Below are positions 29,901 to 52,574 of a stretch of DNA of 64,000 nt, one piece after another. The notes under the pieces were generated by a model, which ran no database searches, was not told the DNA's origin, and saw only the letters and a list, made by a program, of their open reading frames with translations. The stretch is from Eledone cirrhosa. Lineage: Eukaryota. The translations under genes were made by a program, and so were the position numbers. The stretch covers positions 2,542,001 through 2,606,000 of the forward strand of contig OZ024743.1 of the NCBI GenBank assembly GCA_964016885.1, in the 5' to 3' direction. How positions within the stretch are numbered: the first letter of the stretch is position 1; each line of letters opens with the position of its first letter.

Positions 29901-30492
29901 TCCAGTCAGTTATTATAACTCATTACTCCATAGCTTAACATGAAGGGTAATCAGAATGAAGAGTATTGCTTATTGTTAGTTTGATATTTATTACCTGTGT
30001 ATGCCCTGGTGTTGAAAAATAGTAGTATTGGTGCTACAATAAAATGCATCTAGTCCACTCTGTAAAGTAGTAGTGCTTGTGCCATGATAAAATACATCCA
30101 CTTCCCTCTGTAAGATGGTAGTGCTGGTGCCATGATAAAATTCAGTGGTTTTCATTATCACCATTTTTGTGTTAGTTTTTCTATGTTGACATAAATTGAA
30201 CAGGTCGACTCCTATATATTTTTATTGTGAAGATGTAGGAGAGAAGACTCAGTTGCGAAATATGATGCTATGATGATATATTTAAAAAATATATATATAT
30301 ATGTGTAGATAAATCTACCAAAATGTATGGTAGTGTCCAATCCGTATGAAGAACTCAATGTAATCCGAATATCATGAAAAGAGATGTATTCAAAAAAATT
30401 TTTAGATGAAAAACACAGGAAAACAGAGTCAAGATAAATTAATAAAAATAATGAATAAAAACAAAGAAACAGTTCCTTATATTAAAAAATTC

Positions 30493-30626
30493 ATCATTTT
30501 ACGATCGTTTCTAGGATATATATGTGTGTGTTGGTATGTATATCATATAGATCTATGTAAAATTTTTACAAACTATCAGAGGGTATATACATACCTACAC
30601 ATATATATGCTGTCTTCAGAAATAAT
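30493..30626 (-). ncRNA. Type I hammerhead ribozyme motif, mirror copy in the left palindrome arm
   Basis: Reverse complement of 30628-30761. Confidence 0.65.
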
Positions 30627-30627
30627 G

Positions 30628-30761
30628 ATTATTTCTGAAGACAGCATATATATGTGTAGGTATGTATATACCCTCTGATAGTTTGTAAAAATTTTACATA
30701 GATCTATATGATATACATACCAACACACACATATATATCCTAGAAACGATCGTAAAATGAT
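30628..30761 (+). ncRNA. Minimal type I hammerhead ribozyme motif with a long helix II
   Basis: attattt-CTGAAGA-[cagcatatatatgtgt...acacatatatatccta]-GAAA-C-gatc-GTA-aaatgat. 7-bp helix I and palindromic loop III. Confidence 0.65.
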
Positions 30762-30886
30762 GAATTTTTTAATATAAGGAACTGTTTCTTTGTTTTTATT
30801 CATTATTTTTATTAATTTATATATATATATATATATATATATTAATTCAAAATATTAACAAAAATAGACATTCTTGTGATCAAGTA

Positions 30887-30953
30887 TATTTTATTATACA
30901 TATTTCAGAGGTACTGAGCTAACTTCAACAGTACGTCCTCATCAGATAAAATA
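30887..30953 (-). ncRNA. Minimal type I hammerhead ribozyme motif
   Basis: Minus strand: tattttat-CTGATGA-ggacgtactg-ttgaagttagct-cagtacctct-GAAA-T-atgt-ATA-ataaaata. Perfect 8-bp helix I. Confidence 0.8.
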
Positions 30954-31164
30954 AGATGATGCATGACATACCCTGACATAGTAGGTGGTTAAGGTTCAGT
31001 CATGGTAGTGAGTAAGATATGCAAAACTCAATATTTATATACCTTAAGATTGAGACTTGAAAAAACTTACATATATTACAGAGGGTGCGCGTGAGAAAGC
31101 TTAAAAATAACAGCAATTTACATAACTGTTGGAGATTCAAATAATTTAAATTATTGAAGAAAGA

Positions 31165-34100
31165 AAGTGGCGGCCTAGGAGTTGTTCGAGTTCTTTCGCG
31201 ACTGTCAGCATACTACTTCGCCCCCCAGCAATCCATTATTTTGCTGGTATCATGCCACCTTTGCGGATAAGGCAAAACATTGCCGGCCTCCATGTAAATA
31301 TTCAGCTTTGGGAAATGTAGGTCAGAGTCACTAAAGGCGGCAAGTGAACTCTACGAGATACAACAGAACCGCCATTTCTTCATAGAGGACCTCCTGTCTG
31401 GAAGAGCCTTCCTCGTAGACATAGGAGCTTCGTGCAGTATTTGGCCTGTCAATTGTATGACAGTAACTCCTCCTGAGTCATCAATGAATCTACAAGCTGT
31501 CAATCATTCGCCGATACGGACTTTTGGACAAATCTCGCTTCCTCTGCAATTCAGAAATCTTCGAGAATTCAAATGGATTTTTATGGTTGCCGACCTATCA
31601 TATCCGATCTTGGGAGCGGATTTTCTACACCATTTTGCATTGACGGTGGACGTCCCTGGCCGATGCCTAGTAGACGACATTACTGGTTTTTCTCTTTGTT
31701 TCCAACAGTTACCCCAACCTTTTTCATCGCTAATGCTGGGAAACCCTATCATTCATTGTTGAATTCTTTCCCACAGCTTACTCAGGGAAATTTTCGAGTT
31801 GTCGAACCGACTCACACAACGGAGCATTTTATCTCTACAACTGGCGCCCCAGTGTTCTCATGTCCTCGTTGCTTGCCTGCAGACAAATTGAAGGCAGCAC
31901 GGTCCGAGTTCGACTACATGCTGCAGCTAGGCATAATTCGCCCTTCTACGAGCCCTTGGGCTTCTCCGTTGAACATGGTACTCAAGACTTCTGGCGACTG
32001 GAGACCCACTGGGGATTATAGGAAGTTAAATGCTATAACTGTCCCGGATATATATCCTATTCCACACCTGCAAGATTTTGCATCGTCATTGCAGGGATGT
32101 AAAATAGTCTCGAAGCTCAATTTGGTGCGAGCCTATCATCAGATTCCTGTCAAGAAAGAAGATATTCCGAAAACGGCCATTACGACTCCATTTGGATCAT
32201 TCGAATTTCTTACCATGCCTTTTGGACTTAGGGATGCTGCTAGCACCTTTCAACAGTTCATGGATGAGGTCACTCGTGGTTTAGACTTCGTCTACACTTA
32301 TATTGATGATCTGCTTATTGCTAGTTCCTCCAGAGAACACATACGTCATTTGAATCTTTTTTGTTTTGTCGACTCAAGGATTACAGTGTTCAAATAAATA
32401 CCACAAAATGTGTTTTCGGTGCGGAATCGCTGAATTTTTTAGGTCATGTCATTGACTCCAAGAGTATTCGATCCCTCCCTCTACGAGTTCAGGCTATAGA
32501 GGATTTGCCTCCGCCGACCTCACTTCGTCAGTTGCAACAATTCCTAGGACTGATAAATTTCTATAGACGTTTTGTTCCGCATTGTGCTAATCTACTCTTC
32601 TCTCTTACTGAGATTCTGAAAAATTACCGCAAGAAAAACAAGGAAATCTCTTTGACTCAGACTCAGATCGAGGATTTTCAAAAGACCAAATCAGCATTGG
32701 CTAGTGCGTCTTTGTTGGCCCACCCAGTGTCCAATGCCAAGTTTTCGCTTTGTGTTGATGCGTCGGATACTGCAGTGGGTGCAGTCTTACAACAGAGTAG
32801 TGACGATCACCAACAACCATTGGAATTTTTCTCCAGAAGTAGAAGCCTGCATAAACTCGCTACAGCACCTTTGCCCAGGAGCTGTTAGCCATCTACCTTT
32901 CCGTGAAACATTTTTCACATATGCTCGAAGGAAGGTGTTTTACAATCTATACTGACCATAAACCTTTGACCTTCGCTTTAAGGGCAAAGTCCGACAAGTA
33001 CTCGCCCAGAGAAACAAGGCATCTCGACTTTATCTCGCAATTCACAAACGACTTCCAACACATTCCAGGCTCATTGAACACGCCCTGTTTCGATTGCCGA
33101 TCAGTTCAATTGCGTCATCCCACAACATCGATTTAAATCACTTGGCAGCAGACCAACCTGCACTGGAATCGTTGGATATTACATCAGCCGAATTTGCAAC
33201 GAGTAATTTGAAATACCTACCATTGCCCACCGCAGATGGACAGATTCTCTGCGACGTTTCCGTGGATTCACCGAGACCGTTTGTCCCGCTAAACCATCGT
33301 CGTACTGTGTTTCTTGCTTTACACAGCATTTCCCACCCAGGATCTTTTGCCACAGTAAAGCTCATAACAGCCAGATTCTTCTGGCCAAATATGAGGCACG
33401 ATGTTACTGCTTGGTGCCGTTCCTGCATCGCTTGCCAGAAATTGAAAATCCATAAACACGTTAAGGCTCCGCTCGGTACGTTCAGTACACCGGACGCCCG
33501 TTTCCGGCACATTCATGTGGACATTGTGGGACCTTGGCAAGTCAGTGGTGGTCATACATATCTATTGACTGTTATTGATCGTTTTTCGCGATGGCCTGAA
33601 GCCATCTCCTTGAAAGACATCACTGCTGAAACGACAGCGCGTGCTCTAGTATCAGGATGGATTGCCCGCTTTGGAGTGTCAACCATGATTACAACGAACC
33701 GTGGAAGACGGTTTGAATCGAATCTCTTCCATGAATTAACGAAAATCATCGGCGCTAAATGCATCCGAACGACTGCATATCATCCTGCCTCTAATGGAAT
33801 GGGGGAGCGTTTCCACTGACAACTAAAAGCCGCTCTATGGACTTCTCCTGACTCTACGCGCTGGAGCGAGTACCTCCCTATTGTGTTGTTGGGGATTCGG
33901 TCAACAATAAAGGAGGACCTTGGGTTCTCCCCGGCTGAATTGTTATATGGTGCTCCTCTAGCGTTACCTGGGCAAATGCTTGCCCCTGTCGAACTTGCTG
34001 AACAAGATCCGCTTTCCTACGTATCCCATCTGCGTTCCTATTTTCAGGACCTGCTGCTGATGGATACGAGGAAGCAAACTGTAAAATCTGCAGTCCCGAG

Positions 34101-34881
34101 GGATATTGCCTCGTGGACCCATGTGTTTCTGAGAAACAATGCCGTGAAACCACCTCTCACACAACCATACTCTGGACCCTACCGTGTAGTAGCTCGTTCC
34201 GAGAAACATTTTACTGTAGACATTAAGGGTTCCAGAGAGACGGTTTCGATTGAGAGACTCAAACGAGCACATTTGGACACAGATGCTATCGCACCTGAGC
34301 CACAAACGCCCCCATCTTTTTCTTTCGCACACACACCTGCCTCTTCGTCCCCCCCTATCAAAAAGATATAAGACTACGACCCATTCCAGTCGGAGGGTTC
34401 ATTGGCCAAAAAAACTGTGTAGCACGGTATATTTTTAAACTGTTATTGTGCGGTGCTTTAATCCTGTAGTGACTATTGGAACTTTTAGGAAATTGTATTT
34501 ACATTTTATTACATTTGTTTTTTCCTTTCACGTTCTTGCATGCTTGTTTAATATGTATTTCTGAAATTTGTTGTGCCCTTCATGCTCGGTTGGGCTGATT
34601 GCTCCTTGGTTTGGGATTTTTGCTGGTTGCTAATCGGTTTTTCTACATACATGATTCGGCGAACCGATTTTTATTTAATTTTCTAAAAATCTGGTGGGTG
34701 ACCATGTAGAAGATCACGCCATCTAGCGTCGACTTTGAAGGCAGTCGTTTAACTGCCCTTAGTTCTGACGTCAGTAGCTGAAATAATGGCTTTTGAACGG
34801 TGATACCTCGGAGGGAATAGACGTGTTTCCACACAGTGACCCAAATAGCAATATCACACCATGCGGTCGCTGCATAATACA
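31165..34881 (+). mobile_element. Ty3/Gypsy LTR retrotransposon, 5'-truncated and frameshifted (gag end, PR, RT, RNase H, IN, 3' LTR)
   Basis: Gag knuckle CWYH..F...A..C.PPC; protease FLVDIGAS; RT YIDD; RNase H DAS and TDHKPL; integrase HH-CC and GPY motifs. Confidence 0.93.
34705..34881 (+). repeat. Putative 3' LTR of the Gypsy element
   Basis: TGTA...TACA termini after a degenerate PPT (ctggtgggtgacca). No 5' LTR is available for comparison. Confidence 0.5.
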
Positions 34882-35113
34882 ATTATTGACAATTACCCAA
34901 CCTAGGAGCACTGATGTATTTAATTATATTATTTAATTGCTCTAATTAAAATGTTCACATAACATAATATTGAGGTATGTTCCTTCTTCCTTGTTTGACC
35001 ATGTGCCACTATATTAAATCCAATTAGACGGGATGTCTGACCACCCCGCCTAAATATGTATATATATATATATATGTATATATATGTATATATATATATA
35101 TATATATATGTAT

Positions 35114-37868
35114 CCAGGTAGATTATATCCTTACCAGGAGACGTGACAGAGTGTCTGTTGTAAACACTAAATCCCTTCCTCATGAAGAATGCACGTCTCA
35201 ACATAGACTCATAATCAGCGACCTCAAAGTCAGGACGAGACGTATTCGACAACAGAAGAGGACTATCCTCAGGAGAAAAATATGGAAATTAAAGGACCCC
35301 ACAGCCAGTCATAAATTTAAAAGCATATTACTTGATGCTTTCGACAGTAAGGAAGAGCAATTAGAGTCGTACAATATAGAGGAACAGTGGGAATTCCTGA
35401 AAGCTAACCTGCTGAAGGCGACAGATGAAACCTGTAGCTGGAGCAGGCCTATAGGCAGGAGGAGAGTAACTTGGTGGTGGAACAGTAAGGTGGAGAGGTC
35501 AATCAAGGCCAAAAAGCAGGCTTGGAAAGCATGGCAGGATGGGGGAAGTAGAGAAGACTATCAAGTGGCCAGGAGGGAAGCTAGGAGACAAGTGTACTTC
35601 GCAAGAAGGGAAGCAGAGGAAAGAAAGTTCAAGCATGTTCTACAACGCGAGGACCAAAAATGTGAGGTGTTCAGGATTGCTACACAATGTGTCAAGGAAA
35701 ACAGTGATATTGTCAGGGAGAAGTGTGTCCTAAATGATGATGGTGTACTTGCCATCACTGACGCTGATAAGAAGGTAGCTTGGATGTGTCACTACGAAAG
35801 GCTACTAAATGAGGAGAATAATTGGGAGAAAGACGGTCTCCCCCACATCGACCCAATAGAGGGACCAGCAGTGCAAGTTGAAGGTAGTATAATAAGTAAG
35901 GCGATCAAATACATGAAGACGGGCAAGGCGGCCGGGCCTTCGGAAATAGTTGCCGAAATGCTGAAAGCATCTGGAACGGTGGGACACACTAAGGTCACCC
36001 GGATAGTAAACCAAGTCATACAGATGGGGTCGTTCCGAAGGACTGGCGCAGCAGCATCATCATTAACTGCTACAAGGGTAAAGCTGATGCCCTAGATAGG
36101 GGAAACTATAGAGGCATTAAATTAATTGACCAGGTCATGAAGGTCACAGAAAAAGTAATAGCGCAAATAATCAGAGAGAGAATTGATCTCGACGAAATGC
36201 AGTTCGGCTTTGTGTCAGGTAAAAGTACAACAGACGCTCTTTTCATTGTACGACAACTACAGGAGAAGTACCTAGCTAAAGGTAAACCCCTATACTTAGC
36301 TTTTGTTGACTTGGAGAAAGCCTTTGACAGAGTACCCCGCACGATTATCTGGTGGGCCCTTAGAAAACTAGGTGTTGATGAATGGCTTGTGAGAGCTCTA
36401 CAAGCCATGTATAAAGAAACAGCCAGCAAGGTTAGAATTAACAACGAATAGAGTGAAGAGTTTAGTGTAAAAGTTGGTGTTCATCAGGGCTCCGTCCTTA
36501 GCCCCCTACTATTTATTATTGCTCTTCAGGCTATAACAGAGGAGTTCAAGACCGGCTGCCCATGGGAACTCCTATACGCAGATGATCTAACGCTCATAGC
36601 TGAATCAATGGCTGAACTAGAGAAGAAATTCCAAACATGGAAGCATGGCCTAGAATCAAAAGGCCTTAAAGTTAACTTGTCTAAGACTAAAGTTCTGGGA
36701 AATGGCCATGCTCAGTGTGTAGGAAAAGAGTAGGTAGAAACTCCATTTTATGTCCCAAATGCAAAGTATGGGTACATAAAAGATGTAGTGGGATCACGGG
36801 TAAACTATCTAAGAATATAGATTTTATATGTGGCCGGTGCTCTGGTGCAGTAAGTAGCAGCAAGTGCCCACAGAATACTAACTCGATCCATTGCACAGAT
36901 GGTTCTATAGAAATAGTGGACAGCTTCCGTTACCTGGGTGATAAAATCATCAGTGGGGGAGGGTGCTCTGAAAGTACAGTAGCTAGGGTCAGAACGGGAT
37001 AGAAAAAGTTCAGAGAGCTTATACCACTATTGGCCGCTAAAGGGTTCTCTCTAAAAATGAAGGGCAGGCTGTATGATGCCTGCATACGAACAGCAATGTT
37101 ACATGGCAGTGAGACCTGGGCATTGTGTGCAGAGGATATATGCAGACTGGAGAGAAACGAAGCTTGCATGCTCCGCTGGATGTGTAATAGTAACATACGT
37201 GAACGGCAAAGCATAAACGTACTAAGGGAGAAATTAGAAATAAGAGGGATCAGATGTTGTTTGCTCGAGAGAAGACTACGTTGGTATGGCCACGTGATGC
37301 GCATGAAAGACGACAGCTGTATAAAAAAGTGCAGGGCAATAAAAATAGACGGTAGCCACGGAGTAGGCAGACCCAGAAAAAGCTGGGACGACTTGATAAA
37401 TTCCGACCTCACACACACCTCTCCAAGGCAATGTCACTGGACCGAGAGCTTTGGCGTTACATAGTAATAGAGAAGACCCGCCTTACCTAAGTACAAAGTG
37501 AAACCTACAGTCAGTAGGCACCTCTAACAAAATACACCCCGTCCCACTACCCCCACCCCATCCACACCACCCCTTCAAGGTAAAGTTATGTTGGTACCAC
37601 AACATCCAGGCCGAAACAAATGAGGTCGTGCAGGGGGTCACGACAAAAAAACGCAGTCCACGCTGTAATGTGGCCGTGTAGGCAACACGGTAAAAACCTC
37701 CCAGTTCCACACTGTAAATGTGGTTGGTGTTAGGAAGGGCATCCAGCCGTAGAAAACCCGCCAGACAGCCCTATGCGAGCAAGACAACCACTCTTGCCTC
37801 AAGTGGAAAACCCCTGTCCAAACCCATGCAAGCGTGGATTATGGACGTTAAACGATGATGATGATGAT
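35114..37868 (+). mobile_element. RTE family A, 5'-truncated, several disablements
   Basis: End of the endonuclease, RT, C4HC3 finger, 3' UTR and (GAT)n tail; TA repeats on both sides. Confidence 0.94.
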
Positions 37869-37889
37869 ATATGTATATATATATATTTT

Positions 37890-38103
37890 CTCGATCGACT
37901 TTCGTCAAATCGGTCCGAGGGAACAATGTTTCCGTTGGTCTTTCCAATTGCTAATACTATCTATCGGTCGCAACTCCAGGTAGAAGGAGCAACGTGAAAT
38001 AAAGTGTCTTGCTCAAGGACATAACGCATCACCTGGTCCAGGAATCGAACTCACAACCTTACGATTGCGAATCCAATTCTCTAACCACTCGGCCACACGC
38101 CTT
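37890..38103 (-). mobile_element. tRNA-derived SINE
   Basis: aagtgtcttgctcaagg...ggaatcgaactc...ctctaaccactcggccacacgcct (B- and A-box complements). Confidence 0.72.
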
Positions 38104-38377
38104 CACTAAATATATATACATATGTGTGTGTGTGTGTATCCTCCTTTTCTCTCTCACACACACACACACAGACATGGGTATGTATGTGTGCGTACGTGGG
38201 TGAATGCATGCATGCATATGTGCGTGTATTGTATACATGTATATTGTATGTATATATATATATGTATATTGTATGCATCTGTATTATATTGTGTGTATGT
38301 GTATGTGTGTGTGTATGATATGTATATGTGTGTGTATGTATGTATGTATATTTTTTTCTTTAGAAGTCTTCTCTATA

Positions 38378-39820
38378 TGTGGTATTTGGCATGAATTCCT
38401 CCTATAATACTTCTCTTTGAGAGGAGCACGATATGTGGAGTAACACATATGTATTGTCGCAGTTGAAACTGAGAACCACCACCCCTCCTGCTGACCCAAA
38501 TGTTTACTGAGGACCAGAACACCATTCCCCACAATATAAGAGAGGAATGCGCTTGCCGGACTATTGATGACCATAACATAACATTCCAAGGTAATGGCAA
38601 AACACAGTGAATGCTAGACATGACCAGAACACCACAACATGCACATCGGAGCAACAGAGATATAACATCAATAAGCGAGTCAATTGAATTTTTTGAGTTG
38701 AAATACATATAGATATGTGTCTGTGTGTATCGGACACACGTACACATAAAGAAACTGCTGACCTAAATGTACCTGTCATGCCTGTCTGAATTCCTAAGAG
38801 AATTTCCGGTCAGTTACTATCTTGACCGATTACCCTCACAATTACTACGTATAAATATGTGTCTGTGTGTATCGGACCCACGTACACATAAAGAAACTGC
38901 TGACCTAAATGTACCTGTCATGCCTGTCTGAATTCCTAAGAGAATTTTCGGTCAGTTACTATCTTGACTGATTACCCTCACAATTACTACGTAGCGGTTC
39001 TTGCACGTGACTGCTGGACCCGGATGAAACGAAGACGAAGAATTTCCTTGCGTACCGTTTTGTACCACAGATGCGATCTCACTCTGCCTCGTTAATGTTC
39101 AATCGACACCAAAGTTCTACGTTCGGAGCAATAGAATTGAATCCAACCACCGACAACATAGTTGGATGACCGATAATCACACCAAACCGGAGTACTGTGA
39201 TCCTTGTGATTTCGAGATATACAACCACTGACACTGTTACGAAGACCAGAAAACCATACTCCATAATATTGAACCAAATGATTGATTTGCGCGACCAAAA
39301 TAACACCACACACATATTGAACTAGGAATATTGGATCCTCCGTCAATGTCTGGGTGAGCAAAAATAGATTTCTATCTGCATTGGAATTTACGAACTTGTG
39401 CATCTGCTGTGGTGTCAAAAACAAACGCACATGACCGCACGGATGAACAATGGACTATACCACGTGGCTTGAACCTGCAGGTGAATTGAAGGATTTGTAA
39501 CTCTGATATACAGATTGTTTATTATTAAGATGTATAAACTTGACATAACTATTATCATCTTATATTCTCTCAAATAATCACGTTTGATTATATTTCTCTA
39601 TCCCGTTTTCTCCCCCTATATTTATAATATTTTTGTTTGAAAAGATCGGTTTTTTTACATTGTCTTTTCCCCTCCTAATTCTTTATATATTCTCTATATA
39701 TTTTTTATATATATTTTTTTATCTTTATTCTTATTTTCACTTTTATCATCCTTTATATTTTACCTTATTCTTACTTTTATACCTTATTATAGTGTAATCT
39801 AACCCATGCCTTATTATACA
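38378..39820. mobile_element. Possible solo LTR or other non-coding element with an internal ~140-bp tandem duplication (38714-38992)
   Basis: TGT...ACA termini, non-coding, flanked by microsatellite. The duplication is seen directly; the LTR call is tentative. Confidence 0.35.
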
Positions 39821-39829
39821 TTATTATAC

Positions 39830-39923
39830 ATATATGTATACAGACGTACAGTGGTATGTATATATATATATACATACATGCACACATATATATATGTACG
39901 TATGTATATATATATGTATATAT

Positions 39924-39969
<46 letters not shown>

Positions 39970-39970
39970 G

Positions 39971-40004
<34 letters not shown>

Positions 40005-40431
40005 TGTATGTATATATATGTATATATATATATATATGTATGTATATAGATGTATATATATATATGTATGTATATAGATGTATATATATATATGTATGTA
40101 TATAGATGTATATATATATATATATGTATGTATATAGATGTATATATATATATATATGTATGTATATAGATGTATATATATATATATATGTATGTATATA
40201 GATGTATATATATATATATATATATGTATGTATATAGATGTATATATATATATATATGTATGTATATAGATGTATATATATATATATGTATGTATATATA
40301 TGTATATATGTAGATATATGTATATATATATATATATGTATATATATGTATATATATATGTATATATATATGTATATATATATATGTATATATATATGTG
40401 TATATATGTATGTATGTATATATGTATGTAT
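39830..40431. repeat. (TA)n/(TATG)n microsatellite
   Basis: Seen directly. Confidence 0.97.
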
Positions 40432-40898
40432 GTTGATGGAAACCGCGGAGTGGGGAGACCCAAGATGACTTGGGATGAGGTGATAAAAGCCGACCTTACC
40501 CAACTACACCTCTCAAAGTCAATGACACACGACCGTGACTTCTGGCGTCACGCAGTAATACAGGGTACCCGACCTCCCATGGGTACATGCTGAAGCATAT
40601 AAACAATATGCCCCCCCCCCCCCCACCGCAAGGTGGTCGTGGAGGTGCCACGGCAAAAAAGCACCCAGCCCACACTGTAAAGTGGACGTGTAGGCGCCAC
40701 GGAAAAGCACCCAGCACTCACTGTAAATGAGGTTGGTGTTAGGAAGGGCATCCAGCTGTAGAAATCAAGCCAGATCAGTTCCTGTATGAGCAAGGCATAG
40801 TCAGCCGACCAGACACTGCCCACAACAGGACAACCCGTCTAACCCATGCTAGCGTGGAAGAACGGACGTAAAACGGTGATGATGATGATGATGATGAT
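40432..40898 (+). mobile_element. RTE family B short 3' fragment within a TA microsatellite
   Basis: Nearly identical to the reverse complement of ~28723-29175. Confidence 0.93.
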
Positions 40899-40957
40899 AT
40901 GTATGTATATATGTATGTATGTATGTATATATGTATGTATGTATATATGTATGTATG

Positions 40958-40988
<31 letters not shown>

Positions 40989-41057
40989 GTATATATGTAT
41001 GTATGTATATATGTATATATACATGTATGTATATATATATATAAGTATATATATATG

Positions 41058-41132
<75 letters not shown>

Positions 41133-41221
41133 GTATGTATGTATATATGTATATATACATGTATGTATATATATATATGTATATATATATGTATGTATGT
41201 ATATATGTATATATACATGTT

Positions 41222-41833
41222 ATGTCAGGTCACCAGTTGGTGCTACTGGTAACATGTATCCCAGTACAACCTGTCTCATGGTCGGGTCGTTGGCGACTAA
41301 ACTGGCAACCCCATCAAGGTTTCTTGGTGAGGAGGGTGACTTTGGACATCCTGCAGGACTAAAAACAAAACCTGTCAAAGGGCAAAGGAGCTCTTAAGTG
41401 TCAATGGCCATCCAAAATCACTGGGAGAGATGACCCCTTAGCCTTTGTCAAGGCAGAATTCTAGGAGAAGGAAAACTCTGATATAACACCTGCAACCCTG
41501 ATGGTATCCAATGATGTTGACTAGTTCTTCTTTTTGGTAAATATCATCTTGGTTAAGAGAGTGGGACTGGCTTTGTGCAGTGCCTTTGCTCACTATAAAA
41601 GCTTCACGGCACAGGCATTGCTTTATATCTGGAGATCTCTCCGCACTTGTCGTCACATGGTACCATGGGCCCAACACTATGTGTCAATAGTTGTCACAAG
41701 TGTAGTGTTTGTACCAGAGTTTTCAAGTCGCTGGCTGGACTAAAAAGTCACACTCGTTCAGCGCATCGGTAGGGGTTCTCCTACATGGATATAAAGTAGT
41801 GGTCGTACTCGAAAACGAGTTGGCAGCCACCAT
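41222..41833 (+). mobile_element. Bipartite non-autonomous RTE-like element (5' UTR joined to a C2H2-encoding 3' end)
   Basis: Motif ctaggagaaggaaaactctg recalled from RTE 5' UTRs. 41701-41772 encodes [23 protein letters not shown]. Confidence 0.6.
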
Positions 41834-42026
41834 ATATACATGTATGTATATATATATGTATATATATATGTATATATATATGTATATATATATATATGTA
41901 TATATATGTATATATATATGTATGTATATATATATATGTATATATACATGTATATATATATATGTATATATACATGTATATATATATATATGTATATATA
42001 CATGTATATATATGTATATATACATG

Positions 42027-42057
<31 letters not shown>

Positions 42058-42071
42058 GACTCCAGTTCATG

Positions 42072-42108
<37 letters not shown>

Positions 42109-42122
42109 GACTCCAGTTCATG

Positions 42123-42157
<35 letters not shown>

Positions 42158-42161
42158 GTAT

Positions 42162-42210
<49 letters not shown>

Positions 42211-42342
42211 CATGTATATATATTTATATGACTCCAGTTCCCCAGTGAATTAACGACCCAACAAGGAACTGGGCATATCAGAGTATTGACAATATCATAC
42301 ACCTAAACAACATATGTACTTGTCTATACCATACTAATTCAA

Positions 42343-42397
42343 ACTACCTGAAGAGGTCACAGCCAAAGATGGCTGTCACTGAAATATATATAGCAGT
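42343..42397 (+). ncRNA. Minimal type I hammerhead ribozyme motif
   Basis: actac-CTGAAGA-ggtcacagcca-aaga-tggctgtcact-GAAA-T-atat-ATA-gcagt, followed by AATAAA. One mismatch in helix I. Confidence 0.75.
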
Positions 42398-42447
42398 AAT
42401 AAACGAAGCTAAATTTTAATCATTTGACTTTTATTTAACTTTATTTT

Positions 42448-42572
42448 ATGTATGTATATATATATATGTATGTATATATATATATGTATATATATATATG
42501 TATGTATATATATATATGTATATATATATATGTATGTATATATATATATGTATGTATATATATATATGTATG

Positions 42573-42604
<32 letters not shown>

Positions 42605-42610
42605 TGTATG

Positions 42611-42641
<31 letters not shown>

Positions 42642-42642
42642 G

Positions 42643-42674
<32 letters not shown>

Positions 42675-42680
42675 TGTATG

Positions 42681-42711
<31 letters not shown>

Positions 42712-42823
42712 GTATGTATATATATATATGTATGTATATATATGTATATATATATATATATATGTATGTATATATATGTATATATATATATATATGTATG
42801 TATATATATATATATATGTATGT

Positions 42824-42877
<54 letters not shown>

Positions 42878-42966
42878 ATATATGTATATATATATATATA
42901 TGTATGTATATATATGTATATGTATATATATATGTATGTATATATATATATGTATGTATATATATG

Positions 42967-43001
<35 letters not shown>

Positions 43002-43134
43002 GTATGTATATATATGTATATATATATATATATGTATGTATATATATGTATATATATATATATATGTATGTATATATATGTATATGTATATATATATGTA
43101 TGTATATATATATATGTATGTATATATATATATG

Positions 43135-43173
<39 letters not shown>

Positions 43174-43285
43174 ATATATATATATATGTATGTATATATA
43201 TGTATATATATATATATATATGTATGTATATATATGTATATATGTATGTATATATATGTAGATATATATATATATATGTAGATAT

Positions 43286-43326
<41 letters not shown>

Positions 43327-43367
43327 TATTTATGTATATATATGTATGTATATATATATATGTATGT

Positions 43368-43436
<69 letters not shown>

Positions 43437-43555
43437 TATGTATGTATATATATATATGTATGTATATATATATATGTATATATATATATGTATGTATATA
43501 TATATATGTATATATATATATGTATGTATATATATATATGTATATATATATATAT
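42448..43555. repeat. 1.1-kb (TA)n/(TATG)n microsatellite
   Basis: Seen directly. Confidence 0.97.
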
Positions 43556-44453
43556 CTGGATGGAAAAAGTTCAGAGAGCTTATACCACTATTAGCCGCTA
43601 AAGGGTTCTCCCTAAAAATGAAAGGCAGGTTGTATGATGCCTGCATACGAACAGCAATGTTACATGGCAGCGAGACATGGGCATTGTGCGCAGAGGATAT
43701 ACGCAGACTAGAGAGGAACGAAGCCTGCATGATCCGCTGGATGTGTAATAGTAATATACGCGAACGGCAAAGCATAAACGAACTAAGGAAAAAATTAGAA
43801 ATAAGAGGGATCAGATGTTGTTTACTCGAGAGAAGGCTACGTTGGTATGGACACGTGATGCGCATGAAAGTCGATAGCTGTATAACAAAGTGCAGGGCAA
43901 TAAAGATAGACGGTAGCCACGGAATAGGCAGACCTAGAAAATCCTGGGACGAGCTGATAAACTCCGACCTCACACACTTACACCTCTCCAAGACAATGTC
44001 ACTGGACCGAGACCTTTGGCGGTACTCAGTAATAGAGAAGACCCGCCTTACCTAAATACATAGTAAAACCTACTACAGCCAGTAGGCATCTCTAACAAAA
44101 TACACCCCCGTCCCACCACCCACACCCCCATCCACACCACCCCCTCCTATGTAAAGTTATGTTGGTGCCACAACATCCAGGCCGAAACAAATGAGATCGT
44201 GTAGGTGTCACGAGAAAAAAACACACAGTCCACACTGTAATGTGGCCGTGTAGGCAACACGGTAAAAACCTCCCAGACCCACACTGTAAATGTGGTTGGT
44301 GTTAGGAAGGGCATCCAACTGTAGAAAACCTGCCAGACAGTCCTATGCGAGCAAGACAATCACTCTTGCCTCAAGTGTGACTACCCCCGTCCAAACCCAT
44401 GCAAGCGTGGAACACGGACGTTAAACGGTGATGATGATGATGATGATGATGAT
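43556..44453 (+). mobile_element. RTE family A 3' fragment
   Basis: GWKKFREL...KTRLT*, 3' UTR and (GAT)n tail. Confidence 0.94.
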
Positions 44454-44582
44454 ATATATATGTATATATATATGTATGTATATATGTATGTATATATGTA
44501 TATATATATGTATGTATATATATATATGTATATATATATGTATGTATATATATATATGTATATATATATGTATATATATATG

Positions 44583-44639
<57 letters not shown>

Positions 44640-44671
44640 GTATATGTATGTATATGTATATGTATGTATAT

Positions 44672-46135
44672 GCGAAGTCTTTCAATTCAGGATTTGGGCA
44701 CCATGGCCCATTCGAGAAGAGAATTACTGTTTGCGGAGACATATCCGGGTGTGGGTGGTTTGTCCGGGATTACTTGGAGGAATTTGTCCAAAGACTTCTT
44801 GAATTTTGTGTGGTCAGTTTCTGTTTTGACGTGTCCTGGTGTGATGTTGAAGAGAGCAGGGCCGATTGAGGTGAAATAATTGTGCCGTATTGTTGTTATG
44901 AGTTGCGATTTAGATTTTTGAATGGGACGGATAGCACGGGGCCCAAGCCTTGGGTGTATCTTGAAGGCGATGCCAACATCATTTGGGCAGTGATGATGGA
45001 ACATTTTCCACATCATGCAGATAATATAACGCTCACGGCGACGTTGGAGTGAGTAAAGTTTCAGGTTTTCCAATCGACCCCAGTAGTCAAGGTCTGACAT
45101 GCCATCTATCTTTTTCGTGATTGCCCTTTGAGGAGCTTCAAGTTTCATGATACTTTGTTTCGTGTGGGGAGACCACAGTGGACAACAGTATTCAAGGTGT
45201 GGTCGGGCGAAAGTAGAGAAGAGAAGGATAATGGTGCGGGAATCTCTCGACTGGAAGGTTCTGAGGATCCAGGAACACATTCTGCGGGCCATGTCAACTT
45301 TGCTGCTTATATGCGTGGTCCAGCTTATGTTGCTGTCCACGGTTACTCCCAAGTCTCTGATGTTGTTAGATGCCACGAGAGTTTCCCCGGAGGGAAGGGA
45401 GTACGGGAGTTTCAGAGCATCCTCTTTTCCAAAGTGGATCAGTTCGAATTTGTCTTCGTTCAGTAACATGTTGTTCTTTTCTGCCCATTGGGTAACAGCC
45501 AGTAGGTCTGACTGAAGGCTTATCCGGTCATCCACGCCATTGATGACCTTTTGGAGCTTGGAATCATCAGCGAAAATTTTAATGTTGCTGTGTTTGATGA
45601 TGTCAGTGATGTCATTAATATAGATGATGAAGAGAAGTGGGCCCAACACAGTGCCTTGTGGGACTCCACTACTGACTTTGGCTGGGCTTGATTTGACTCC
45701 CTCAACTACAACATGTTGGGTTCTGTTTGACAGGAAGCTCTTGATCCACTGCAGCAGCTTTCCAGTGACACCAATATTGGACAGCTTTCTCAGTAGAATG
45801 TTATGATCAACCCTGTCAAAGGCCTTGCTGAAATCAAGGTAGATAACATCAGTGTTGGAACCCTCTCCCAAGGCTCTCAAAATGTCATCAAAGTGATGCA
45901 GTAGTTGCGTCAGGCAATCCCTTCCATTACGGAATCCATGCTGGTTGGAGTTCAGCATAGTGTTACTCTCAAGGAAGTGGGTCATTCGCGATCTCACCAC
46001 TCGCTCAAATACCTTAATGATATGAGAGGTGAGTGAGATTGGACGGTAATTCACGGCAAGGGATTTGTTTCCCTTTTTGAAAACTGGGACAACAGACTGG
46101 GATAGAAGGTTTTCTGGCACATATCCAGCATCCAT
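44672..46135 (-). mobile_element. CR1/L2-clade LINE family 2, 5'-truncated, uninterrupted RT to C-terminus
   Basis: [32 protein letters not shown]. Stop at 44687; a very short 3' UTR runs into (CATA)n. Confidence 0.93.
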
Positions 46136-46552
46136 ATATATATATGTATGTATGTATATGTATGTATGTATATATATATATGTATGTATATATATATATG
46201 TATGTATATATATATATGTATGTATATATATATAGGTATGTATGTATATATATATAGGTATGTATATATATATAGGTATGTATATATATATAGGTATGTA
46301 TATATAGGTATGTATATATATATAGGTATGTATATATATGTATGTATATATATATAGGTATGTATATATATGTATGTATATATATATAGGTATGTATATA
46401 TATGTATGTATATATATATATAGGTATGTATGTATATATATGTATGTATGTATATATGTATGTATGTATATATATATATGTATGTATATATATATATGTA
46501 TGTATATATATATAGCTATGTATATATATGTATGTATATATATATAGGTGTG

Positions 46553-46597
<45 letters not shown>

Positions 46598-46704
46598 ATA
46601 TATATATGTATATATATATATGTATGTATATATATATATGTATGTATATATATATATGTATGTATATATACATACATATGTATATATACATACATATATA
46701 TATA
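46135..46704. repeat. (TA)n/(TATG)n/(TAGG) microsatellite
   Basis: Seen directly. Confidence 0.97.
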
Positions 46705-46846
46705 TAACCACGGAGCTTGAGGCAATCCAGCAAAGCTACACCAAGAGGATTGCCAAGATGAGGGAGACAAGCTACTGGGAGAGGCTGAAGGAACTGAACC
46801 TCTACTCCTTGGAGCGAAGACGGGAGAGATACGCAGTGATCTACAT
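46705..46846 (+). mobile_element. Short fragment of CR1/L2 family 3
   Basis: [46 protein letters not shown], nearly identical to the minus-strand copy at ~63750-63893. Confidence 0.9.
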
Positions 46847-49800
46847 TGGACGGGGGTAGTCCCACTTGAGGCAAGAGTGATTGTCTTGCTCGCATAGGAC
46901 TGTCTGGCAGGTTTTCTACAGTTGGATGCCCTTCCTAACACCAAGCAGATTTACAGTGTGGGTCTGGGAGGTTTTTACCGTGTTGCCTACACGGCCACAT
47001 TACAGCGTGGACTGTGTGTTTTTTTGTCGTGACACCTACACGATCTCATTTGTTTCGGCCTCGATGGCGCGGCACCAACATAATTTTACATAGAACGGGG
47101 TGGTGTGGATGGGGTGGGGGTGGTGGTGGTGGGACGGGGTGTATTTTGTTAGAGATGCCTACTGGCTGGAGTAGGTTTTACTATATATTTAGGTAAGGCG
47201 GGTCTTCTCTGTTACTGAGTACCGCCAAAGGTCTCGGTCCAGTGACATTGTCTTGGAGAGGTGTAAGTGTGTGATGTCGGAGTTTATCAGCTCGTCCCAG
47301 GTTTTTCTAGGTCTGCCTATTCCGTGACTACCGTCTATCTTTATTGCCCTGCACTTTGTTATACAGCTATCGACTTTCATGCGCATCACGTGTCCATACC
47401 AACGTAGCCTTCTCTCGAGTAAACAACATCTGATTCCTCTTATCTCTAATTTTTTCCTTAGTTCGTTTATGCTTTGCCGTTCACGTATATTACTTTTACA
47501 CATCCAGCGGAGCATGCAAGCTTCGTTCCTCTCTAGTCTGCGTATATCCTCTGCACACAATGCCCAGGTCTCACTGCCATGCAGCATTGCTGTTCGTATG
47601 CAGGCATCGTACAACCTGCCTTTCATTTTTAGGGAGAACCCTTTAGCAGCTAATAGTGGTATAAGCTCTCTGAACTTTTTCCAACCAGTTCTGACTCTAG
47701 CTACAGTACTTTCAGAGCACCCTCCCCCACTGCTGATTTTATCGCCCAGGTAACGGAAGCTGTCCACTATTTCTATAGAACCCTCTGCGCAATTGAAAGA
47801 GCTAGTATTTTGTGGGCACTTGCTGCTACTTATTGCACCAGAGCACCGGCCACATGTAAAATCTATGTTCTTAGTTAGCTTACCTGTGATCCCACTACAT
47901 CTTTTATGCACCCATACTTTGCATTTAGGACATAAAATGGAGTTTCTACCTACGCCTTTCCTACACACCGAGCACGACCATTTCCCAGAAGGGACCGCCG
48001 CCTTGTTTTCTTTCCTACAAACTAGTACTTTGGTCTTAGCCAGGTTAATTTTAAGTCCTTTTGACTCTAGGCCGTGCTTTCATGTTTGGAATTTCTTCTC
48101 TAGCTCGGCCATTGATTCCGCTATGAGTGTCAGGTCGTCTGCGTATAGGAGTTCCCATGGGCAGCCTGTCTTGAACTCCTCTGTTATAGCCTGAAGGGCA
48201 ATAATAAATAGTAGTGGGCTGAGAACAGAGCCCTGATGGACGCCAACTTTTACGCTAAACTCTTCACTATATTCGTTGTTAATTCTAACCTTGCTGACTG
48301 TTTCTTTATACATGGCTTGTATAGCCCTCACAAGCCATTCGTCAACGCCTAGTTTTCTAAGAGCCCACCAGATAATGGAGCGGGGGACTCTGTCGAAGGC
48401 TTTCTCCAAGTCGACAAAAGCTAAGTAGAGGGGTTTACCTTTAGCTAGGTACTTCTCCTGTAGTTGTCGTACTATGAAAAGAGCGTCTGTGGTACTTTTG
48501 CCTGACACAAACCCGAACTGCATTTCATCTAGGTCAATTCTCTCTCTGATTAGTTGCGCTATTACTTTTTCCGTGACCTTCATGACCTGGTCGATTAATT
48601 TGATGCCTCTATAGTTACTACTATCTAGGGCGTCTCCTTTACCCTTATAACAGTTAACGATGATGCTGCTATGCCAGTCCTTCGGAACAACCCCATTCTG
48701 TACGACTTGGTTAACTATGCGGGTGACCATGGTGTGTCCCACCGTGCCAGATGCCTTCAGCATCTCAGCAACTATTTCCGAAGGCCCAGCCGCCTTACCC
48801 GTCTTCATATCCTTGATTGCCTTACTTATTATACTCCCCTCGACTAACACTGCTGGTCCCTCTATTGGGTCGATATGGGGGAGACTGTCTTTCTCCCATT
48901 TATTCTCCTCATTTAGTAGCCTTTCATAGTGACACTTCCAAGCTACCTTCTTATCAGCGTCGGTGATGGCAAGTGTGCCATCGTCGTTTAGTACACACTT
49001 CTCCCCGACAATATCACGGTTTTCCTTGACGCATTGCCTAGCAATCCTGAACACCTCACGTTTTTGGTCATCGCGTTGTAGAACATGCTTGAACTTTCTT
49101 TCCTCGGCTTCCCTTCTTGCTAAGTACACTTGTCTCCTAGCTTCCCCCCTGGCCACTTGATAGTCTTCTCTACTTCCCCCATCCCGCCATACTTTCCAAG
49201 CCTGCTTTTTGGCCTTAATTGACCCCTCCACCTTACTGTTCCACCACCATGTTACTCTCCTCCTGCCTACAGGCCTGCTCCAGCCACAGACTTCGTCTGT
49301 CGCCAACAGCGGGTTTGCTTTCAGAAATTCCCACTCTCCCTCTATATTGTCCGACTCTAAATGTTCTTCCTTACTGTCGAAAGCATCAAGTAATATGCTT
49401 TGAAATTTATTCCTGGCTGTGGGGTCCTTTAGCTTCCATATTTTTCTCCTGAGTATAGTCCTCTTCTGCTGTCGAGTACGTCTCGTCCTGACTATGAGGT
49501 CGCTAATTATCAGTCTATGTTGGGAGGTGCATTCTTCATGGGGGAGGGATTTAGTGTTTACAACAGACACTCTGTCACGTCTTCTGGTAAGGATATAATC
49601 TACCTGGCTTGTGTGTTCCCCGGATCTATAGGTGATCAGGTGATTGTCACGTTTTTTGAAGTTAGGGTTACAGATAGTTAGGTTATTTGCATCACAGAAT
49701 TCCAGGATTCTGGAGCCTTCCTCATTTCTAGTACCAAACCCATAGCCTCCATGGATTTCGTCGTAGCCGTCACAATGTTGTCCAACGTGACCATTTAGGT

Positions 49801-50586
49801 CGCCTGCGATAATTATATAGTCACTGTCGGATATTTGGGAGGTAGTTAGCATCAGTGTCTCATAGAATCTGTCTTTTATAGTGCCGGGCAGTCCGGATTG
49901 GGGTGCGTACGCAGATATTACTGTCACCGTAGTTCTATTGAGGACAAGTCGTATTTTAATTATTCTGTCGTTCACTCTATTTACGTCTATTATCTTATCT
50001 GCCCACTTTTCTGCTACCATGATTCCTACTCCACCCAGCCCATCGTCGTTTCCCACCCAGAAAAGCTTATAACATCGTTTTTTACCCTCAATGAACCTAG
50101 CAGACCCACCCCTCCACCTGGTCTCTTGAATACAACAAACATCGACCTCCTTACGTTCAAGCATTTCTACAACCTCGTTAGCGCGACCCTTTAGGGTGCC
50201 TACATTTATGGTACCAACTCTGAAGTTTTGGATTGCGTTTGGGGATCGGGGGCGGTGGGGGGAGAAGGGCGATGGGGTTATGTTAGCCGTCCGCGGTCGA
50301 AACAATGAGGAGTGCTCGCATTCTCGTCCAAGAGGTGAATTTGTCTTTATCTTTGGCATTGTCGCTGAGCGTCCAGATTTTTCTCTCTCACTCCTCCACT
50401 CTCCAGGATTCCGCAGTCCATCCATCCATCATATATCGAAAGGCAACCAGGCAAGCGATAGTATAGGCCTCTGGCTTCTGATTGGTCCGCGTAATAATAC
50501 TGGTGATGTGTGGGGGCTCTGGTTTATGATTGGTCCACGTAATAGCAATGGTGGTGCGTGGGGGTGGGAGGGAGGGGTGTTGGGTA
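46846..50586 (-). mobile_element. Full-length RTE family A LINE (5' UTR, 3' UTR lacking its tail)
   Basis: Single APE-RT reading frame 50425-47189 plus UTRs. Confidence 0.95.
47189..50425 (-). pseudogene. RTE ORF (APE endonuclease, RT, PHD-like finger; 1078 codons) with one in-frame TGA at 48080-48082
   Basis: ORFs 48080-50425 and 47189-47968 are in the same frame with no other stop between them. Other copies have TGG (FQTWKHG). Confidence 0.92.
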
Positions 50587-50916
50587 GCTAGATAGAAGGT
50601 AATGATTGAATGGGGTCCTTGCATTTAACAAGCGATTAACAAAAATACAAAATTTGTTCTGTTCAATACGACCAAAAACTTTCGTATTTAACAATTAATA
50701 AATACAAAAAATGTAGATTGTTTTAGCGATAGATTGGCTATTTGGACTTGATACGAAATATGGATTGTTTTGAAAATACGCTAGAATTAGGATTAAAATA
50801 CGCTAGAATTAGGATTTGTGGAGGTAGAGAGATGAAGGAAAATCTGTACATTACGTTACATGAATATCGTGGGGGTAGACAGCAAGCAATGAAATTTGGC
50901 GAAGTGAATTCCTATC

Positions 50917-50948
<32 letters not shown>

Positions 50949-51845
50949 GGGGGGTGGCCGCATGATGGTTGTGTGTGTTAGGCGTTTGACCGCCCCATGC
51001 CTTCGAAGAAGGAAGAAGGAAAGGATTTTGTTTTTTTGTTTTGAAGATACGCTAGAATTAGGGATTGAGGTTTGAAAATACGTTAGGGATTGAGGTTTGA
51101 AAATACGTTAGGAATTAAGGTTTGAAAATACGCTAGATAGAAGGTAATGATTGAATGGGGTCCTTGCATTTAACAAGCGATTAACAAAAATACAAAATTT
51201 GTTCTGTTCAATACGACCAAAAACTTTCGTATTTAACAATTAATAAATACAAAAAATGTAGATTGTTTTAGCGATAGATTGGCTATTTGGACTTGATACG
51301 AAATATGGATTGTTTTGAAAATACGCTAGAATTAGGATTAAAATACGCTAGAATTAGGATTTGTGAAGGTAGAGAGATGAAGGAAAATCTGTACATTACG
51401 TTACATGAATATCGTGGGGGTAGACAGCAAGCAATGAAATTTGGCGAAGTGAATTCCTATCATATATATATATATAGAGAGAGAGAGGGGGGGGGGCCGC
51501 ATGATGGTTGTGTGTGTTAGGCGTTTGACCGCCCCATGCCTTCGAAGAAGGAAGAAGGAAAGGATTTTGTTTTTTTGTTTTGAAGATACGCTAGAATTAG
51601 GGATTGAGGTTTGAAAATACGTTAGGAATTAAGGTTTGAAAATACGCTAGATAGAAGGTAATGATTGAATGGGGTCCTTGCATTTAACAAGCGATTAACA
51701 AAAATACAAAATTTGTTCTGTTCAATACGACCAAAAACTTTCGTATTTAACAATTAATAAATACAAAAAATGTAGATTGTTTTAGCGATAGATTGGCTAT
51801 TTGGACTTGATACGAAATATGGATTGTTTTGAAAATACGCTAGAA
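50587..51845. repeat. Tandem array of a ~515-545-bp unit x2.4
   Basis: Units begin gctagatagaaggtaatgattg at 50587, 51132 and 51646. Confidence 0.95.
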
Positions 51846-52135
51846 TATATATGGATATGTATATGTATATATATATGGATATGTATATATATATATGTAT
51901 ATATATGTATATAAGCGTGGAAGATGGACGTTAAACGATGATGATGATGATGATGATGATGATGATATATATGGATATGTATATATATATGGATATGTAT
52001 ATATATATATGTATATATATGTATATAAGCGTGGAAGATGGACGTTAAACGATGATGATGATGATGATGATATATATATATATATGTATATATACGATAT
52101 TAAACAAATGGAAACTATATTTATAAAGCCATATT

Positions 52136-52201
52136 TATTTCGTTATATATATTTCTGGGATATCATATTAAAAATATGGTATGCCTTCATCAGACAAAAT
52201 A
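52136..52201 (-). ncRNA. Minimal type I hammerhead ribozyme motif, intact core
   Basis: Minus strand: tattttgt-CTGATGA-aggcataccatatt-ttt-aatatgatatccca-GAAA-T-atat-ATA-acgaaata. Confidence 0.75.
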
Positions 52202-52344
52202 CAATACATAAGCTGTTTTATAAATAATTATTGACATACCTTATAATAATGCAACTTCCATTTAAAAAGTTGATTTGGTAGTCAATGGAAGTTGCATTAT
52301 TATAAGGTATGTCAATAATTATTTATAAAACAGCTTATGTATTG

Positions 52345-52410
52345 TATTTTGTCTGATAAAGGCATACCATATTTTTAATATGATATCCCAGAAATATATA
52401 TAATGAAATA
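52345..52410 (+). ncRNA. Hammerhead mirror copy with a G8>A core mutation (CTGATAA), probably inactive
   Basis: Right-arm copy of 52136-52201. Confidence 0.6.
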
Positions 52411-52542
52411 AATATGGTTTTATAAATATAGTTTCCATTTGTTTAAAATCGTAAACTTACTCCAGAAACTGTTGTGTGCTTTTATATCAGTTATAAAATA
52501 TTTACTAGTTGTAACCCAACAATCTTAAATAAAACTTTTGCA

Positions 52543-52573
<31 letters not shown>

Positions 52574-52574
<1 letters not shown>

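Follow-up and report, generated by a model that had tools for sequence, protein, structure and literature searches.

Four hammerhead ribozyme motifs and two inverted twins were found in the stretch of DNA that was analysed (64,000 nt, hereafter the window). Its surroundings in the 3.0 Gb genome we take to be RTE-like and other LINE remnants, named from protein motifs, together with (TA)n tracts. The sequence-only reading had described four motifs with a C·C mismatch at the fourth pair of helix II, and a descriptor scan recovered all four, with the helix II pairs as first described and C·C at pair 4 in each. The coordinates given earlier hold as the ends of helix I but not as the starts of the cores, which lie at 30635, 30945, 42348 and 52193. 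The features are as follows.

30304..30634, minus strand: inverted copy of F1, 94% identical to L151, whose twin hammerhead is intact (core at 30619; C 30609 faces C 30515)
30620..30842, plus strand: F1 3′ end (pLTR piece), 97% identical to the 3′ pLTR of the two-pLTR element L151
30628..30761, plus strand: hammerhead motif 1, core 30635, helix II of 101 nt, unpaired C 30645 facing C 30739, cut predicted after 30754
30804..31165, minus strand: F2 3′ end, 93% identical to L170
30887..30953, minus strand: hammerhead motif 2 with core at 30945, C 30935 facing C 30910, cut predicted after 30895
42222..42461, plus strand: F3 3′ end followed by a (TA)n-type repeat, 96% identical to the 3′ pLTR of the two-pLTR element L097
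42343..42397, plus strand: hammerhead motif 3 with core at 42348, C 42358 facing C 42377, cut predicted after 42392
52086..52285, minus strand: F4 3′ end holding motif 4, 98% identical to L115 and 84% to the two-pLTR element L096
52136-52201, minus strand: hammerhead motif 4 with core at 52193, C 52183 facing C 52159, cut predicted after 52144
52284..52574, plus strand: inverted F4 copy, 97% identical to L115, carrying the twin hammerhead 52345-52410
52345-52410, plus strand: twin of motif 4, core 52353, with G8 changed to A and C·C retained

The motifs show the characters of a type I hammerhead, namely the CUGANGA and GAAA core, an NUH triplet, and three helices of which helix I is open. Pairs 1 to 4 of helix II are C·A/A-U/G-C/C·C in motif 1, G·U/G-C/A-U/C·C in motif 2, G·U/G-C/U-A/C·C in motif 3 and A·A/G-C/G-C/C·C in motif 4. 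The G10.1-C11.1 pair adjoining the core is thus absent from these four, just as many published Hydra-clade rows lack it, and C·C occupies pair 4 in all six window motifs, the two inverted twins included. The helix III loops of motifs 1 to 4 are GAUC, AUGU, AUAU and AUAU, and the cleavage triplets are GUA, AUA, AUA and AUA. Motif 3 also has an A·C mismatch at pair 2 of helix I, a minority form present in 3 of 30 copies from loci chosen without regard to their likeness to motif 3. A descriptor blind to pairs 1 and 4 returned five window motifs with scores of 29–37, and 200 Markov resamples gave 10 hits scoring at least 27. No hammerhead family appeared among the 150 of 180 Rfam rows listed (E ≤ 1), which held only microRNA-like matches on (TA)n and hairpins.

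Judged by their likeness to fuller copies, the window motifs lie in 5′-truncated 3′ ends of ORF-bearing Penelope-like elements with Hydra-clade motifs, and not the small non-autonomous retroelements that had been suggested. The window pieces are 84–98% identical to the 3′ ends of reference elements. Two hammerhead-bearing repeats flank an RT/GIY-YIG frame in the full elements L096 (3845 and 7592; family F4), L097 (4530 and 8627; F3), and L151 and L153 (both F1). Family F2 is linked through two loci, L139 and L170, which have an endonuclease frame 1.6–2.0 kb upstream of the hammerhead and cluster together in the endonuclease tree; in L170 the hammerhead lies 1,966 bp downstream of the GIY-YIG-type frame. 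The frame beside the motif-2 copies L027–L030 was left out of this link, and it follows an F6-type hammerhead.

The translations of L096 and L097 show a single RT frame with a GIY-YIG-type endonuclease at the C-terminus, and the Pfam GIY-YIG model matched one of four pieces at E = 7 × 10−4, a match that falls short of the curated cut-off. RWK (F3) or RWR (F4), DKT, the CxCX5C linker, and the endonuclease CxxC and CxH are all present in F3 and F4; RWR and CxCX5C are present in F1, and CxCX5C in F2. Frameshifts or stops interrupt the ORF in most copies examined. Partial tandems with pLTRs, an inverted truncated copy and a (TA)n target were all seen (L096, L097, L151, L153 and the window twins). 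The hammerheads of a tandem are spaced by 3.7–4.2 kb. Most tandem copies have the motif about 240–280 bp upstream of the ORF, and it lies near the 3′ end of the element. The Hydra-clade assignment is a motif match to the description of Craig et al., and our trees contained sequences of this genome only. The idea that these are the missing hammerheads of Naiad elements, which have an N-terminal endonuclease and DKA, was ruled out by the C-terminal endonuclease and the motif DKT. A non-LTR retrozyme was also ruled out, as the window copies are single or inverted and match the 3′ ends of ORF-bearing elements.

We searched the whole genome with helix II left free (CTGANGA-N14-44-GAAAYRYRYRTA) and obtained 110,286 matches (control 430). 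Requiring C·C at pair 4 within this pattern left 75,621 of them, or 69% (control 8). Pair 4 is not mostly Watson–Crick in this tally. The 5′ base of pair 4 was other than C in 6,387 matches, so that C stands there in about 94%. It was opposite a purine in 4,190 matches, and the first 100 rows listed for that set contained an F2 subfamily in which C·A recurs, along with C-G copies here and there. By subtraction, about 24,000 matches have C·U, mostly from family F6 among the rows listed. F1 falls outside these counts because its helix II is longer. An earlier pair of pattern counts, 18,523 of 19,394, is approximate, as the gap ranges differed slightly between the two. For single motifs, there were 788 first-look candidates for motif 2 (41 identical 81-nt copies among the 43 matches listed), 182 candidates in the genome for motif 3, and 4,043 genome occurrences of the 24-base tail of motif 1. 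A metagenome scan covering at least 117 loci yielded no pair-4 C·C hammerhead among 23 structured matches. Near-identical F3 and F2 pieces occurred at very low depth in the run of a second organism; these may be carry-over and were therefore not counted as a second species.

The conservation of pair 4 was analysed in 308 distinct copies (191 sequences), a non-random sample picked around known hits. Pair 4 was paired in 5% of these copies; 240 had C·C, 35 C·U and 9 C·A. C was opposite C, U or A in 40 of 53 clusters and in 14 of the 15 clusters found in at least two loci, where pair 4 was C·C in 12 clusters and C·U, C·A and A-U in one each. Among the same 15 clusters, four paired types were found at pair 2 and three each at pairs 3, 5 and 6. 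The pairing rates at pairs 2, 3 and 5–7 arise partly by construction (four of the five were required to pair), the copies are non-independent, and the lineages share ancestry. Pair 1 varied, with about half of the clusters having a true pair there, and the length of helix II ranged from 20 to 116 nt among the copies. In the amplified lineages the C on the 5′ side has thus persisted, facing C, U or A, and pairs 2, 3, 5 and 6 have swapped among Watson–Crick types around it. Because the partner varies and the 5′ C is kept, the fixed feature is an unpaired C and not a C·C pair. The conserved mismatch reported before is real and genome-wide, with covarying neighbours, but it is not C·C as such, as large lineages carry C·U and C·A.

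Exceptions were also found. Pair 4 is U·C or U·U in some singleton motifs, and it is paired in other families of the same element type (L092, L120, L142, L158 and L165), some of which share the 8-nt palindrome. Some inverted twins share a Watson–Crick or U·C pair 4 (L291 and several other twin pairs). Either templates of this kind were apparently mobilised now and then, or the twins were homogenised; the existence of these twins speaks against a strict need for the C.

The four motifs had been called unrelated, and this does not agree with the trees. F2, F3, F4, F5 and F6 formed one clade (100/100). F1 grouped weakly (80/89) with a family whose core is altered and which lacks the pair-4 mismatch; a topology uniting all of the C-mismatch families was not rejected (p-AU 0.06). 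This tree used 14 of the 29 assembled rows, and another held 19 rows. The base of the endonuclease-only tree was not resolved, and several rare C·C clusters had no linked frame and were not placed. The carrier families share 36–49% identity in the endonuclease, with the exception of F4 and F5 (84%). Because F2, F3 and F4 belong to one clade and F1 to the same element group, these sequence comparisons indicate one origin, or at most two, of the pair-4 mismatch.

We then compared these motifs with published hammerheads. Craig et al. tabulated 34 motif rows, 26 of them from the Hydra clade (PMC8557442). The Hydra-clade elements described there have in common with ours RW[K/R], DKT, CxCX5C plus a GIY-YIG-type domain at the C-terminus, and they share the (TA)n insertion, the inverted truncated copy and a type I hammerhead near the 3′ end. 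Like ours, their hammerheads carry an additional base on each side at the foot of helix II, and 14 of the 26 Hydra-clade rows have a mismatch at pair 1, so the non-canonical closing pair noted earlier is not new. In contrast, inspection of these 26 rows by eye found neither a pair-4 mismatch (0/26) nor an 8-nt even palindrome in helix III (0/26). The present elements also differ in a helix II of up to 116 nt and in repeat units of 3.7–4.1 kb, whereas the Hydra-clade elements are generally shorter than 3 kb (a tendency, and not diagnostic).

Cervera and de la Peña described minimal hammerheads of Penelope-like elements (PMC4209133), for which dimer action is established as a class. Ours share with them type I architecture, a long helix II, a small palindromic helix III, predicted dimer action and many variable families per genome. 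Their consensus differs from the window motifs by one extra 5′ base and by G10.1-C11.1 beside GAAA. C·C in helix II occurred in none of the 56 rows of that 2014 alignment, in which helix II holds one U·U or C·A in each of two rows. The pair-4 mismatch is thus absent from the rows of both published alignments. Non-LTR retrozymes (PMC7229834; 10.64898/2026.07.22.740005) share type I and a weak palindromic helix III, and for the Amex2 motif of the axolotl a mismatch of U with U has been described at the foot of helix II. However, the retrozymes described there are short ORF-less tandem repeats, whereas the window copies are dispersed and collinear with ORF-bearing elements. The Poseidon element PAc (Frangieh et al. 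2024, PMC11167929) shares a hammerhead at the pLTR–ORF junction of a Penelope-like element, but it belongs to another clade, its hammerhead overlaps the ORF start, and no helix II mismatch is mentioned in the passages compared. That hammerhead cleaved only upon addition of the protein of the element, which makes it a model for protein-assisted cleavage; the stretch proposed to bind the protein comprises the first 172 nt of the ORF, and insertion in vitro was independent of cleavage. The phrase "C-C mismatch" occurred in none of the 20 papers listed by a literature search of text, and a prior description may exist.

In nearest-neighbour folding, the monomer hammerhead lay 4.4–8.7 kcal/mol above the lowest fold. 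The double hammerhead was 11.6–14.8 kcal/mol better than two monomer hammerheads, and the dimer fold was about level with two misfolded monomers. Closing pair 4 gave a predicted gain of 5.8–6.7 kcal/mol. These energies fit the published dimer model (PMC4209133) and the protein-dependent cleavage of another Penelope-like hammerhead (PMC11167929).

From the observed identity, layout and copy numbers of the elements and the conservation and covariation in helix II, the following course may be proposed. A tandem transcript would carry two motifs about 3.7–4.1 kb apart, and their 8-nt palindromes would pair to form a double hammerhead. The pair-4 mismatch would leave two firm pairs beside the core, and a lone motif would stay unfolded. 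The unpaired C might be read by the protein of the element or by helix I, and this contact might replace the loop 1–loop 2 contact of canonical hammerheads. When helix I was inspected by eye, no conserved partner base for the pair-4 C was found. The window's solo and inverted copies are probably inactive, and a transcript running across the inverted twins would fold into long hairpins and not into hammerheads.

The chances are about even that the helix II cytosine stays unpaired because it makes a base-specific contact that helps to activate a ribozyme predicted to fold only as a dimer or with protein help. We favour this explanation over the three that follow, since the C on the 5′ side is fixed and the base facing it is free. 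Pair 4 could instead be a generic hinge or brake, where a weak spot of any kind at this level holds the ribozyme inactive or allows refolding, and C·C serves simply as a very weak mismatch. The cost of the mismatch (about 6 kcal/mol) is as such a hinge would predict, pairs 2–3 of motifs 3 and 4 are predicted to pair only weakly (0.03–0.08), and the singleton motifs with U·C or U·U at pair 4 are of the same kind. However, a generic mismatch should drift on both sides, and the 5′ C has remained in about 94% of the genome matches and in 14 of the 15 multi-locus clusters with a variable partner. A hinge is thus possible, but we doubt it.

It is rather improbable that the C is a neutral accident, inherited from one ancestor and spread by amplification. 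The single clade of F2–F6, the twins with a closed pair 4 and the dispensability of cleavage in vitro in another element (PMC11167929) would all accord with such an accident, but the C stayed while the flanking pairs changed repeatedly on both sides and helix II varied from 20 to 116 nt, and the more distant F1 lineage also has an unpaired C. A constraint outside the ribozyme, for instance on a promoter or protein site within the DNA of the repeat, or on the reverse-transcription template, is very unlikely: the motif does sit upstream of the ORF in most tandem copies and near the 3′ end, and the sequence bias extends to pairs 5–7, but the feature is set by its register in the RNA helix, and the flanking letters differ between families.

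Within the favoured explanation of a base-specific contact, a more specific and tentative proposal is that the unpaired C is a docking point through which the telomerase-like protein of the element, or helix I, switches the hammerhead on. Such a contact would be previously undescribed and would occur in about 100,000 copies.

The sequences point to a real and abundant lineage-level variant of the known Penelope-like hammerhead with a conserved unpaired C. Perfect-stem descriptors would overlook this large hammerhead population. If the C is neutral, it would be only a lineage marker of a known element. Penelope-like hammerheads cleave poorly alone, and one base fixed across lineages with fewer than half of their endonuclease residues in common would provide a one-nucleotide handle on protein-assisted or dimer-dependent activation. 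If the C is indeed a docking point, these motifs would represent a new subtype of hammerhead, with copies in the genome numbering about 100,000.

In the window, two opposed ends of family F1 form an almost perfect palindrome (30304-30842) with motif 1, the type I hammerhead of this family, in its middle; F1, like F2 and F3 below, is a family of Hydra-clade-type Penelope-like elements. This palindrome is directly adjoined by an F2 end, and elements of different families are stacked at the same (TA)n sites. Other parts of the window (8557-11432, 31298-34371, 44687-45500 and 48080-50428) are occupied by long LINE frames with endonuclease and reverse transcriptase, the disrupted pol region of an LTR retrotransposon, and numerous RTE-like copies.

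Further observations concern loci elsewhere in the genome. At L291, an F3 copy, the inverted twins flank an endonuclease remnant, and each of them has a C-G pair at helix II pair 4 (counted from the core). In several families (L053, L089, L120, L151 and L165) the arms of helix II are greatly extended, measuring 90-116 nt, and the proximal helix II pairs are kept. Further families of this element type (L142, L158, L108 and L107) also have hammerheads at their 3' ends, located 3' of the endonuclease frames, but the core of these is changed to CCGANGA or CAGAAGA.

At L290 (G000:C1:43586000-43595900), 308-bp units form a tandem array that includes an inverted block. Each unit contains a short type I hammerhead, with U·U at pair 1 and CGCG as helix III. 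This array looks like a non-LTR retrozyme.
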